From: a virus
Direction: 5' to 3' (one strand)
Length of the DNA stretch: 64,000 nt
IMG/VR virus record: IMGVR_UViG_3300032030_000014
Span: 67,919 to 131,918 of that record
The notes under the pieces were generated by a model, which worked only from the letters and a program-made list of their open reading frames with translations, was not told the DNA's origin and made no database searches. Both the position numbers and the translations under genes were made by a program. Shown here in pieces: positions 23,408 through 64,000 of the stretch (positions are counted from its first letter, which is position 1; every line of letters starts with the position of its first letter).

Positions 23408-23448
23408 AAAGGGAATAGAAGAAATTCTATTCCCTTTATTTTTTTATC
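23408..23448. terminator. bidirectional rho-independent terminator shared by the + cassette and the minus-strand late block
   Basis: Stem aaagggaatagaa, loop gaaa, stem ttctattcccttt, followed by atttttttat. The TAA of the giant minus-strand gene (23444-23446) abuts it. Confidence 0.6.
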
Positions 23449-26400
23449 TAATTCTAATCCAAACACGTCCATTAACTTTTACATTTCCAGTGCCCCATTC
23501 TTCATAATCAGGGACTGCAGAAATAGTACCAATAATACGAGATGGATATTTTTCTTCTTCTTCTTCTGTCATAATAGAGACAGTACCATTAGGACCAGAA
23601 CAAACCGGCCATCCAATATGTGATGCAAATTCTTCGCGTGATTCATAAGGATAAGCAAGAACACGCCCAGATGATGCAATTGGAGTTTTTGATTTATTGG
23701 TTTCACCAATAGCAAAACCATAAGTATCTGATACAATTTCACAGCCACGTTCTAAGCGTTTTGTGGTAATCTAAAGAGTATCATCACCAATTTCTTTTAT
23801 GCATCTACCTGGTTCAACATTTTCTTTTGTTTCACGAAATTCTGCATAGTCGTTCCAAACGGCACCCCAAACCTATGTTGCATTAACATATCCCATAGCA
23901 ACAGCATTTCTAGCAGTGCCACCAAGAGATACATATGAGCCCGATATATCAGAATAGCCCGTCTATTCATTATATAATCGAATAGATCCTTTTGAGTTAT
24001 TCGCTCCGGTTGTAGCTGTAGCAGCAGCTCTAGCAATATTATTACCAAGCATAAGCCAAGTTGCTCCCTAAGCACCTTGAGTTGTTCCATTACTTGCGGT
24101 TCCCACAGTAGCGCAATAAATATGAGCAACCTATTGTCCATTTGTCATTATAAATATTCCACCATCTTTAGCTGCGCGATTAACAATTAATGAATTACTA
24201 CTTTCTACAGTACCATTGGTATATTGATGACCATTGCAATAAAATCTAAAACCTACAGTACGACCATTATAAGTTAGATTTGCTGGAGTTGTACCAGTGA
24301 TTTCAAGACGCCCAGATGCAGAAGATATAATGCGACTTGTAAAATCAGCAGTAGAAGAACCATGATGAAAATCAATAAATGGAGTTGATCCAGACATCTC
24401 TATGTATCCAGCTCCAAAAAGAGAGCCGGCCGCCGCACTATTTCCTGCTGTATAACTAGTTCCGCCAATCAATAAAGATGTACTAAGATATCCAGTTCTC
24501 CATCTTAAAGAAGTTGAACCTATGTCGTAAGTCGCATTAGCCTATGGATAAATATGACCCTTAAAAGTTTTATTACCATCAAACTATTGCGCTCCAGTAG
24601 TAACAACTCCACTTGCGCCGGCTGCTGCAGCTGGAATTGCTACAGCAGTTCCGGTAATCCCATTAACAGTAGTTGTAAGAGTTGGACCTGCTGTTGTTCC
24701 TGCTACCCACGCATTTGAAACAGTTGCACCAATTTCAGCCAAAGTCCAAGCAACATTTGCAGATCCATCAACTGACTTGCCCTTTGAACCAATAGTTATT
24801 GTTCTTGCAGTACCCCATTTTGTGGTAGTGATGGCTGCACTACCATCAAAATTAGTGCCATTTATTGCTCTAGCTGTTGCTAGTTTAGTTGCGGTAGAAG
24901 CATTACCATCAAGTGCACCGTGGGCGGTTGTCATGTATATATTGGCCCATTTTAAAGAGCTATCGCCTAAATTATAAGCATTGTTAGTAAGTGGTCTAAT
25001 GTGACCAGAGCGAACATATTTATTTGAAGCGTAATATTGTAAATAAATTTCTTTGGCATCATAAGAATCAATATGTAAATTACCATCTGTTACACCAATA
25101 ATAGCTCTATCTGACGTTTCAGCAGTAGTATCATATCTTCCAAGCTATAATCTTGAGGGTGTTAACCAGTTGTTACTATATTCTATAACTTCTTTTCCGT
25201 TAAGAGTTAATGTTCCATCATATGAGCTTAATGCCATTCTTGTTGTGGGCTAAACAGTATTAGCAGAAGCAGCTTCATTCTTAGCGGCTTCCCATGTCCA
25301 TCCATAGTTTTCAACATTTTCAATTATTGAACGACGAGCCCAGGTTGTAACATTACCTAGTGTACCAGGCTTACCTCCGGTTGGACATGCTCCATTAACA
25401 GCGTTAGACATATAATCAATCCAAGTATAATAAGAAGGAGAATAAAAATTAATTCGTCCAAAAGCAATACCTTTAGCACGATTTAATTGTAAAGCTCTAA
25501 CATGAACAGTATTCCAAGATAAATTTGTTGAACCCAAATTTTCAGTATTAGTTGTAGTCTCAGTTGCATCTATACCGGGAACGATATTACCAAATACCGT
25601 GATATTTGAGGTAATATCTTTAGATTGACCAATCTTAATATCTCCACCATTATATTGTAAATATAATAAACCAGTAGAATTATCAGATGCATAGGCCTAA
25701 ACTCCTGCTCCACCAAAAGATAAATATCTCTTTCCAGAAGAACCAATAATAAATCTTTTATCCGATGTCTAATCATTATTACCAATAGCAAAACGCGAAG
25801 TGCCATTAATATATAAATTCTCAGATGGGGCAGAAGTGCTATTTATTGCAATTTTAGTTGAAGAGGCATAATGCCCGGTGGCAGATATAGCGTTCTCTTC
25901 ATCATAATAGGTTATACGATTAGCTGTTCCCGCATTAACTGTTGTATTTATTGCATAGTCTATCGCAGTAGCTTGGCCATTCTTTGCAATATAAATAGGC
26001 TTATTACTATCTCCTTCTTTTGTAGAAGCATTACTATTTTTAAAAACGTTTACTCGCCAACTACTCCAAGAAGATCCTCCATTATTAGAATGTCTTTCTG
26101 CTTTAACTCCAGAGTTATATATCATTAACTATTGTCGCAAATAATCTTCACTGGATCCAAACGAAGTTTCTACTTTTAGTTGATATGCTTGCATAGAACT
26201 AGAAGCTTCTTCGCTATATGGATTGTTTAATATGGTTCTTGAAGTAGTAGTAGTATTCCAATAATTACCAACTGTTGTAATAGTATTTAAATCTGTTCCA
26301 GACGGTATCCCCGATCCGCCTTTTAAGGTCCAGACTGGATTACCAGCCTCTGGAACTCCATTATTCCAATATATTGGCTATTCCTATCCGCCATAAGAGT

Positions 26401-62801: not shown

Positions 62802-62807
62802 TCTGTA

Positions 62808-64000
62808 TTATGAACGATTAGCATATTGAGAAGCACGATTAACAAGATTATTAAATGCTTCTTCAATTTCACTATGATTTGTTGCATTTGGAAATTCTGC
62901 ATGAATTGTAACAGATTGTTCTAAAGTTTGAGAGCCTGCTTCATATGCTGGAGAACTAAGTCCGGTTGAAATATTACTTGCGGCCGCACGCAAATCAATT
63001 GCAGAAGCAAAATCTCTAACTAAAGATATTGCAGAAAGAATATTCTCTGTATCATTTGCATTAAGAACAAGCTCTTTTTCATGCAATACTGCCAATTTAC
63101 CGCTTGAGCCCCAGGTTCCAGTATATCCACCAGAAGCAAATGCCATTTGAACATTATTTCCGCCTCCGCCTCCGCCAGAAGATGAAGAAGTGGATGTCTC
63201 TATAGGAATACTGGCTGCGGCATTGACTGCTTCGGCTGCAGCAGATTCTGCACGGGCTGCATACTCTTCGGCCATTTTAATAGATCTAGCAATAATCTCA
63301 GCAGCAATCTAAACAGCACTAGAAACGGTATCTGCATTATTATGTAAAGCCTCAACTAAACTATTTGCGGCTTCCTAAATAATACCTTCTGCTTCTTGAG
63401 TTGTTTCATCAAAATGCTCTGTTGTTTCATCTGCTAAAGTCTAAAAATCTCCTGTCATAGCTGCTGCGGTATCCTAAATTGACTAAGCTGTGTTAGCAGA
63501 CTATTCAGTATTTTCATCAGTTTTTTCGGTAGATTCTTCTGTTGCTTCCTAGGCACTTTCAGCCTATGCTTTAGCTTCTTCCGCCAATCTATTAGCGTCG
63601 ATCTAAGCATTGGTATTTTCTTCTAATCTTTTAGCAAATTCTTCTAAAGAATATCCTTCTCCAGTAATACCTAATTCAGCCAACCTATCAGATGTATAAT
63701 ACTACTGATCTCCATTAACACCAGCAATTCCTTGTAAAAATGCCATTGCATCAGCAGACCTTGCATCATTATCGCCTCTTGAAGCAATATCCATCAATTC
63801 AAGAATCTAATCATTAGTCCACCATTTATCATTATGACCGCCATTTAACTCTTCTTTCTATGCTCTAAAAAGAAGCTGCTAAATAACATCATTATCAATA
63901 ACACCAGTTTCTAAGAATTTCTAAGTTGCAGCTAATGAATAGTCTTTATTGGCATCAAATTCTTCTTTATTAACGCCAGCCATTTCATTTAATGCGGCAT
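62808..64000 (-). CDS. 3' part of a long alpha-helical A/E/Q-rich structural gene, probably the tail tape-measure protein. The gene continues beyond the window
   Basis: Track ORF 62808..63275 is in frame with the hand-translated 63276-63998 (...NGGHNDKWWTNDQILELMDIASRGDNDARSADAMAFLQGIAGVNGDQQYYTSDRLAELGITGEGYSLEEFAKRLEENTNAQIDANRLAEEAKAQAESAQEATEE...). About 15 TAGs. TAA at 62808-62810. Confidence 0.4.

Follow-up and report, generated by a model that had tools for sequence, protein, structure and literature searches.

Giant proteins in the probable tail-tip module of a TAG-recoded, siphophage-like gut phage

A number of large gut phages that use an alternative genetic code have been described in literature. 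Phassvirus phAss-1 (Phass-1; OQ749652) is a human-gut phage in which TAG is reassigned to Gln, and it is predicted to be a siphovirus with a host among the Clostridia (Babkin et al., 2023, PMC10607447). The genus Phassvirus comprises three proposed member species, which share 82.7–86.4% nucleotide identity. The so-called 'Agate'-type gut phages have genomes of 154 ± 27 kb, are predicted to infect Firmicutes and include clades in which standard-code and recoded members are mixed (Borges et al., bioRxiv 10.1101/2021.08.26.457843). For gut phages of this lineage, TAG recoding of late genes has already been published (PMC10607447; bioRxiv 10.1101/2021.08.26.457843), and published surveys include some recoded phages that do not carry suppressor tRNAs. 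Here, a stretch of 64,000 nucleotides of the IMG/VR virus record IMGVR_UViG_3300032030_000014 (positions 67,919 to 131,918), referred to as the window, is analyzed, with emphasis on the late block on its minus strand (23444–64000). This block starts with the gene of a tape measure protein (TMP), followed directly by a gene for a giant protein of 2810 amino acids (aa), and it contains an adjacent gene pair encoding a 903-aa protein and a hub-like protein of 1183 aa. The region very probably encodes the tail tip and the adsorption apparatus of a large siphophage (~164–189 kb) that uses code 15, resembles SPbeta, EF1 and Phassvirus, and infects gut Firmicutes. The phage is an undescribed, distant relative of known phages. 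Its kind and its TAG recoding are already described, and no new principle is revealed. Of most interest is the unannotated family of giants encoded after the TMP, which contains a hypervariable insert and for whose anchoring a Dit-like ring and a hub-bound plug are alternatives.

Phass-1 resembles this locus in several respects. It has a TMP of 3149 aa that is directly followed by the gene of a giant, ORF14 (2156 aa, annotated as 'hypothetical'), and it encodes a 903-like and hub-like pair as well as a DNA polymerase III alpha subunit. ORF14 is distantly related to the 2810-aa protein and belongs to its family (E 4e-39 with profile A1), and a tblastn search with the C-terminal region of the window giant retrieved Phass-1 only. 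However, amino acid identity between both phages is only ~30% and megablast gives no nucleotide match, for which reason the window phage was rejected as a member of Phassvirus and is considered a distant relative. The genome of Phass-1 is also smaller (136 kb), other genes lie between its TMP–giant pair and its hub pair, and three suppressor tRNAs are reported for it, whereas none was found in the window or its near flanks. NCBI files Phass-1 (L129/L131) under 'Caudoviricetes code 15 clade', and its annotation in GenBank consists of standard-code fragments.

Read with the standard code (table 11), the minus strand from 23444 to 64000 is fragmented, with a longest open reading frame (ORF) of 758 aa. 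When TAG is read through and only TAA and TGA are kept as stops, ten open frames of 394–2818 codons appear on this strand, covering 38.3 kb; reading through TGA (code 4) or TAA instead leaves the frames closed. The longest run without TAA or TGA counts 2817 codons, whereas 100 shuffles averaged 149 and never exceeded 239, which places the giant frames far beyond chance. Besides its terminal stop, no late gene contains an in-frame TAA or TGA, and in-frame TAGs number 2–70 per gene; the remaining two frames of the same DNA hold tens to hundreds of TAA and TGA. The fragments between TAGs have neither start codons nor ribosome-binding sites (RBSs). With TAG read through, 15 genes are found from 64000 down to 23444, and all real genes of the block lie on the minus strand.

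These gene models largely agree with a first-pass annotation of the window. The three largest ORFs that it had proposed, of 2810, 2653 and 1907 aa, are intact in a table-15 scan for TAA and TGA, and its counts of seven genes longer than 800 aa and three longer than 1900 aa stand, the other four being of 1183, 1025, 903 and 843 aa. Its ~1183 aa is correct as well, given a TTG start at 51281, which is backed by full-length coverage of homologues. As it had stated, stop codons at 47730 and 51296 lie within the RBS of the next gene; these TAA stops abut or overlap the sites AAGGAGG and AAAGGAG. Two of its large genes do not survive. The one of ~972 aa crosses an in-frame TAA at 54014–54016 and consists of a 66-aa gene (54014–54214, minus strand, as for all block genes below) and the 903-aa gene in the same frame. 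Likewise, the one of ~1137 aa crosses an in-frame TAA at 47384–47386 and is split into a gene for a conserved protein of 110 aa (47384–47716) and the gene of 1025 aa. Both splits are made in the public record too. The block had been called uninterrupted, which holds for the strand; it is nevertheless punctuated by at least five intergenic terminator-like hairpins and contains three extra small genes.

It had also been stated that the giant ORFs are invisible to standard gene callers. This applies to the JGI/IMG entries of the late genes, which are standard-code fragments, while the exact proteins are present in full length in Logan, ENA and NCBI. One public entry (P0001), made by an independent pipeline with code-15 translation, is identical to the 2810-aa protein, and exact look-up in public collections found the 903-, 110-, 1025-, 373-, 637-, 843- and 206-aa proteins. 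Another entry (P0291) differs from the 2653-aa protein by 7 substitutions. The exact proteins are already public with correct gene boundaries, though without names. The locus is a worked example of how an alternative code hides a whole adsorption apparatus from standard annotation.

The amino acid inserted at TAG is most likely Gln (code 15), judging from 132 TAG positions in alignments with standard-code homologues, from which the substitution frequencies were taken as well. The maximum-likelihood residue is Gln, 23 nats over Glu, and 2 of the 4 TAG positions in NrdD align with Gln. In the late genes, TAG represents 45–65% of all TAG, CAA and CAG codons and CAG is almost gone, as expected if a single C to T change swapped CAG for TAG. 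Usage of TAG follows a gradient across the window. The codon is absent from the genes for DNA polymerase III alpha, the RecD-like helicase, the methylase and the primase-like protein, and reaches 9–35 per 1000 codons in most late genes; the full TMP gene contains 111. Intermediate numbers are seen in NrdD (4), the DnaB-like gene (2) and the DHH/RecJ-like gene (9). The 843-aa gene, with 2 TAGs only, is an outlier among the late genes. This resembles the Agate phages, in which structural and lysis genes carry most of the recoding and the replication genes are clean, although the examples highlighted in that paper are TGA-recoded. The dense TAGs would keep the late module untranslatable until a factor that decodes TAG, such as a suppressor tRNA-Gln(CUA), is present. 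In line with the proposal of Borges et al., such a dependence would tie virion production to late infection.

Relatives of the window phage make up a large clade in IMG/VR, with contigs of ~100–200 kb, in which both codes occur. TAG read-through is needed in L033, L043, L050 and L051, whereas L034–L047 and L053 are fully coding under the standard code; in the latter, each late gene is a single uninterrupted ORF. Since standard-code and TAG-recoded members share one clade, the code has switched repeatedly or recently in this lineage. Further TAG-recoded members are L074, L088 and L110, and both codes are found even among contigs of a single IMG dataset (3300045988). The gene order is conserved in the relatives and runs from the TMP to a giant, followed by genes for proteins of ~900, ~1100, ~110, ~1000–1900, ~300–370 and ~600 aa and a second giant.

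The gene of the TMP (62808–64000) runs past the window edge, and the 396 codons inside the window encode the C-terminus, which matches phrog_34405 (E 7e-19) and phrog_4211 (E 1e-14), in both cases at the C-terminal end of the profile. The full protein, taken from the source contig (L048), counts 3152 aa and contains PF10145, which confirms that the upstream gene called tape-measure-like at first pass is one. The source contig is 163,725 bp long and identical proteins are found on an NCBI contig of 188.6 kb; together with the TMP length, this supports the large virion that had been proposed. Tsamsa combines a TMP of 3123 aa with a measured tail of 440 nm (PMC3903500), and because of this similar length, a tail of ~440–470 nm is predicted here; the TMP would set this length in a non-contractile tail. 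The cultured phages that are closest by TMP are all siphoviruses of Firmicutes, and a Firmicutes host is also suggested by the strong AGGAGG RBSs, the rho-independent terminators and the G+C content of 24–38%. A crAss-like phage, for which a podovirus tail module lacking a TMP and giant cargo genes with RNA polymerase would be expected, was considered and rejected, given the presence of a TMP, giants without RNA polymerase or crAss-type family matches, and strong Shine–Dalgarno sites.

At the protein level, relatives of the window phage are Phass-1, the Enterococcus phages EF1, H1 and VRE9, the Psychrobacillus phage Perkons and Tsamsa-like Bacillus siphoviruses. No close nucleotide relative is present among the GenBank phages, of which only an nrdD segment matched. 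Tsamsa, Sophrita, EF1, H1 and VRE9 have homologous TMPs of 2673–3123 aa, share head and tail PHROG families with the window phage, and display the same layout of the replication module and tail-module giants of 1949–2533 aa. In Sophrita, for example, a 3094-aa TMP is accompanied by a 1949-aa fibre, and in VRE9_1 a 2673-aa TMP by a tail-module protein of 2533 aa. The tail complement had been considered unusually large, but Tsamsa, Sophrita and VRE9_1, which are cultured and use the standard code, have tail modules of the same style. In contrast to the window phage, these Bacillus and Enterococcus siphoviruses use the standard code, and their giants are not detectably homologous, except for an N-terminal anchor domain. 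They link uncultured code-15 gut phages to cultured ones that could serve as structural and genetic models. The plus-strand half of the window serves replication and nucleotide metabolism, with genes for DnaB-like and RecD-like helicases, primase-like and DHH/RecJ-like proteins, a methylase, DNA polymerase III alpha, NrdD, NrdG, dUTPase and a RuvC-like resolvase. The polymerase is YorL-like and the YomO family is represented; the SPbeta signature families YorF and YorH are encoded just outside the window. A terminase gene was not found within the window.

The 2810-aa protein, encoded directly after the TMP (54256–62688; 70 TAG codons), is probably a tail-tip fibre shaped as a rod of immunoglobulin (Ig)-like domains, as suggested by modeling of a homologue. 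Its family counts 148 listed homologues of 1550–4278 aa, which share a conserved N-terminal part of ~750 aa and a C-terminal part of ~600 aa, with a middle part that varies from ~120 to 2700 aa. In the window protein, an N-terminal anchor (aa 1–125) is followed by tandem Ig-like beta-sandwiches up to ~aa 750. Next come a middle part of ~1450 aa that is specific to the lineage and a C-terminal region (aa ~2176–2810) that is conserved and rich in Gly. Secondary structure propensities of the Chou-Fasman type were uninformative for the middle part. Although there are almost no homologues for these ~1450 codons, their freedom from TAA and TGA at ~24% G+C points to strong coding selection; the low G+C is found at 56000–60000, where the encoded protein is rich in Asn, Ile and Leu. 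The structure model was made with AlphaFold2 (AF2; pLDDT 76.4) for residues 1–1190 of homologue P0006, not for the window protein itself. It consists of a helix and a five-stranded barrel, followed by a long series of beta-sandwiches. Folds matching this model are Ig and fibronectin type III (FN3) arrays, such as the MG domains of complement C3, DSCAM, the Sap S-layer protein, antigen I/II and GhpA; its viral matches are pb4 and gpJ-type tail proteins. T5 pb4 and lambda gpJ likewise carry strings of FN3- or Ig-like domains below a gp27-like hub. However, these matches are generic beta-sandwich arrays without sequence homology, and the 2810-aa gene precedes the hub gene instead of following it, while its protein is 2–4 times larger and has the hypervariable insert.

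The 125-aa N-terminal domain is present in 1624 cluster representatives, always at the N-terminus and mostly on proteins of 1100–3700 aa. It also occurs in ORF14 of Phass-1 and in a 661-aa 'tail protein' that is encoded directly after the TMP of the cultured Enterococcus phage VRE9_1. None of these at least 1624 anchor-bearing representatives is annotated or has a sequence match among solved structures. With this domain, the 2810-aa giant would dock at the tail tip and project a long fibre of lineage-variable length. It is conceivable, though rather doubtful, that the giant defines a class of siphophage tail-tip proteins not recognized before. In that case it would be a 'reach' element, able to evolve in accordance with how thick the capsule, S-layer or cell wall of the host is, either as a length-adjustable central fibre or as a six-armed, hyper-evolved Dit. 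Some homologues of the giant (P0069, P0085–P0087 and P0112–P0117) carry Hint/intein-type domains (PF14890, PF07591 and PF14623), suggesting that inteins have been inserted in giant tail proteins; the copy in the window has none.

The 1183-aa protein (47730–51281; 25 TAG codons) has 1628 homologues, many of which cover 99–100% of the 1183 aa. A full-length homologue with 61% identity (P0123) was modeled with AF2 (pLDDT 70.5), and the fold theme is consistent with a gp27-like baseplate hub or Tal-like protein. Foldseek matches of the model comprise Mu gp44, T4 gp27, MuSo2 gp44-like protein, VgrG, T5 pb3, lambda gpL, Listeria gp18 and several baseplate complexes. The first-pass annotation had proposed a search for Dit and Tal domains by structure prediction. 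This indeed yielded the hub-like fold in the 1183-aa family, but no Dit or Tal Pfam match: models of Dit (Sipho_tail, SPP1_Dit) were not found in the window, nor did the 1183-aa protein match Prophage_tail or YOMG_N. The homologue in Enterococcus phage H1 (H1_43) is recognized by the hub profile with an E-value of 1e-61. In Phass-1, the homologue has been re-annotated by the authors as a 'putative flagellin-like protein'; a gp27-like baseplate hub is the more likely identity in view of the model. The 903-aa homologue of Phass-1 was named 'Ig domain containing protein' in the same re-annotation. The 903-like and hub-like genes also stand side by side in Phass-1 and Enterococcus phage H1, as a conserved pair. 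The 903-aa protein itself (51296–54007; 19 TAG codons) matches phrog_30026, and no match was obtained in Pfam, NCBIfam or PDB. From its position, a Dit-like or baseplate role can be suggested, and the N-domain of the 2810-aa protein is a Dit candidate too. Together, the hub and its conserved 903-aa partner would close the tail tip.

The second giant, of 2653 aa (33143–41104; 47 TAG codons), is probably a receptor-binding protein, judging from sequence matches. It matches phrog_14959 (E 2e-49), and its 118 homologues of 2150–2850 aa carry PF13306 (BspA-type leucine-rich repeat, LRR), PF08757 (CotH) and PF09479 (Listeria-Bacteroides repeat). Mapped onto the window protein, the CotH-like domain corresponds to residues ~1485–1600, the Listeria-Bacteroides repeat to ~2290–2380 and the LRR to ~2484–2570. 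The window protein itself reaches 24.7 bits for LRR_5, below the cut-off of 27.7 bits; the domains are significant in the homologues aligning there. The 1907-aa protein, a tail fibre encoded by the last gene of the block (23444–29167; 22 TAG codons), contains a 60–90-aa repeat, of which residues 1389–1481 are 56–68% identical to annotated tail fibres of many phages, including T4-type gp36/gp37 distal fibres. It also shows a weak match to Phage_fiber_2. Two smaller fibre-like proteins, of 373 aa (43116–44237) and 637 aa (41182–43095; Ser/Thr/Gly-rich), are encoded upstream of the second giant; the 2653-, 1907-, 637- and 373-aa proteins would be further fibres or receptor-binding proteins. The N-termini of these four (at 44237, 43095, 41104 and 29167) share a similar motif, ..VRF..RGTQ..DG.(I)YF.T.D..(L)Y(V/I), which is visible by MAFFT and not BLAST-significant, and which may be a baseplate-docking module. 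The structural protein of 1025 aa (44303–47380; 20 TAG codons) has no family or PDB match, and its homologue counts 1900–1920 aa in standard-code relatives. Overall, Pfam, PHROGs and NCBIfam were almost blank for the late proteins, and sequence searches of PDB were negative, whether run with single proteins or with the family profiles A1 and A3. The hub fold, the fibre repeat, the adhesin modules and the Ig rod nevertheless bear out the initial reading of a late block for tail tip, baseplate and fibres that has to be translated with table 15. The very large, unannotated family of giant tail proteins and the CotH/LRR adhesin-like giant are candidate determinants of host range in phages of gut Firmicutes.

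Some findings weigh against the interpretation given so far, on the side of the code as well as on the side of the virion. Regarding the code, TAG aligns with Gln in 12% of cases (16/132), compared to 31% for ordinary Gln codons, and with Glu equally often (16/132); this moderate signal is expected if TAG occupies less constrained positions. Moreover, searches of the window, the near flanks and ~70 segments from relatives (with ARAGORN for tRNAs, including head-module walks) turned up neither a suppressor tRNA nor RF2 nor any other tRNA, and an Rfam scan of the window returned nothing. If TAG were a true stop and the giants merely strings of short genes or pseudogene debris, the short table-11 ORFs, the fragment proteins in JGI/IMG and the missing suppressor tRNA would all be accounted for. 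That explanation has practically no chance left and is already effectively refuted by the length of the frames compared to shuffled DNA, the stops that fill the other frames, the lack of start codons and RBSs in the fragments, and the standard-code homologues, each a single ORF of similar length and in a similar order, with alignments that cross the TAG positions and Gln as the likeliest residue there. A second possibility is that TAG encodes another residue (e.g., Glu, Ser, Lys, Tyr or pyrrolysine), or that inefficient read-through gives truncated and full-length isoforms. The equal numbers for Gln and Glu and the lack of a tRNA that fixes the identity speak for this, but it is very unlikely in the light of the likelihood difference between Gln and Glu and the near absence of CAG where TAG is abundant. 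In addition, Phassvirus genomes carry tRNA-Sup(CTA), and recoding TAG to Gln restored a complete TerL in these phages (PMC10607447). As to inefficient read-through, 70 TAGs in one gene would leave essentially no full-length product.

Regarding the virion, the assignment to the siphoviruses is based on relatives and on no more than 10 kb of upstream sequence, and the locations assigned to the proteins in the virion are putative, as is any fold of the 1450-aa middle part of the 2810-aa giant. The hub fold has weak E-values (1e-4 to 1e-2), obtained with the 61%-identical homologue, although its theme is uniform, and none of the window proteins has a canonical Dit or Tal Pfam model, while the same scan finds both in Sophrita. 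In a myovirus, the large proteins would be wedge and hub components of a contractile baseplate. Many fold matches of the 1183-aa family are contractile hubs (Mu gp44, T4 gp27, VgrG, phi812, PVC/AFP), and the genome size is compatible with many myoviruses too. Siphophage hubs match as well, however (T5 pb3, lambda gpL, 80alpha, Douge and Listeria gp18), and neither the window nor the 10 kb that precede the TMP gene in the standard-code relative L053 gave a sheath, gp25-like or gp6-like match. As the closest TMP relatives are siphoviruses and the TMP of ~3000 aa resembles that of Tsamsa, with its long flexible tail, a myovirus is highly improbable. Alternatively, the 2810-aa giant might reside inside the tail or be ejected, passing the tail with the TMP as a second tape-measure-like protein or as one that forms a channel. 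Its gene lies directly after that of the TMP and has its own promoter-like site, its middle part is hypervariable as in ruler-type proteins, and no enzymatic or receptor-binding domain is matched. Yet the 1190 modeled residues are almost all beta-sandwich and match extracellular Ig/FN3 arrays, pb4 and gpJ-type proteins; TMPs and ejection proteins are mostly alpha-helical, and the C-terminus of the giant is Gly-rich and looks beta-rich. An ejected protein is hence unlikely, and a tail-tip fibre is the preferred reading.

Several signals and smaller genes complete the picture of the late block. The terminator after the TMP gene that had been noted before is a strong intrinsic hairpin at 62777–62801 (minus strand), with a 10 bp stem containing 7 GC pairs and a T8 tail. 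Past this terminator lies the promoter-like site (TTGACT-17-TAATAT, 62720–62748, minus strand); in a sigma-70 promoter scan, such sites as a class were at chance level in this AT-rich DNA. Terminator-like hairpins also follow the 1025-aa and 637-aa genes, a small gene of ~70 aa with an RBS (32912–33124), a small gene of 68 aa (29380–29586) and the 1907-aa gene. After the 68-aa gene, two strong terminators are present (29345–29372 and 29205–29240), and at the junction between the late block and the convergent plus-strand block, a hairpin of 14–16 bp with T-runs on both strands forms a bidirectional terminator (23405–23440). The adjacent genes of 206 aa (29645–30265; phrog_25888) and 843 aa (30289–32820) encode a paralogous N-terminal domain, with 32% identity over 149 aa (E 4e-16).

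Outside the late block, the plus-strand genes at 20496–23403, among which one for a Gly-rich membrane protein, gave no family matches. Within the replication block, and not among the tail genes, the plus strand encodes a 254-aa protein with a 'Phage tail lysozyme' domain (PF18013; 6330–7094), whose gene is free of TAG. Two small minus-strand genes situated between plus-strand blocks (19291–19782 and 19917–20312) encode proteins with N-terminal transmembrane-like segments, which may be holin-like or other membrane proteins.

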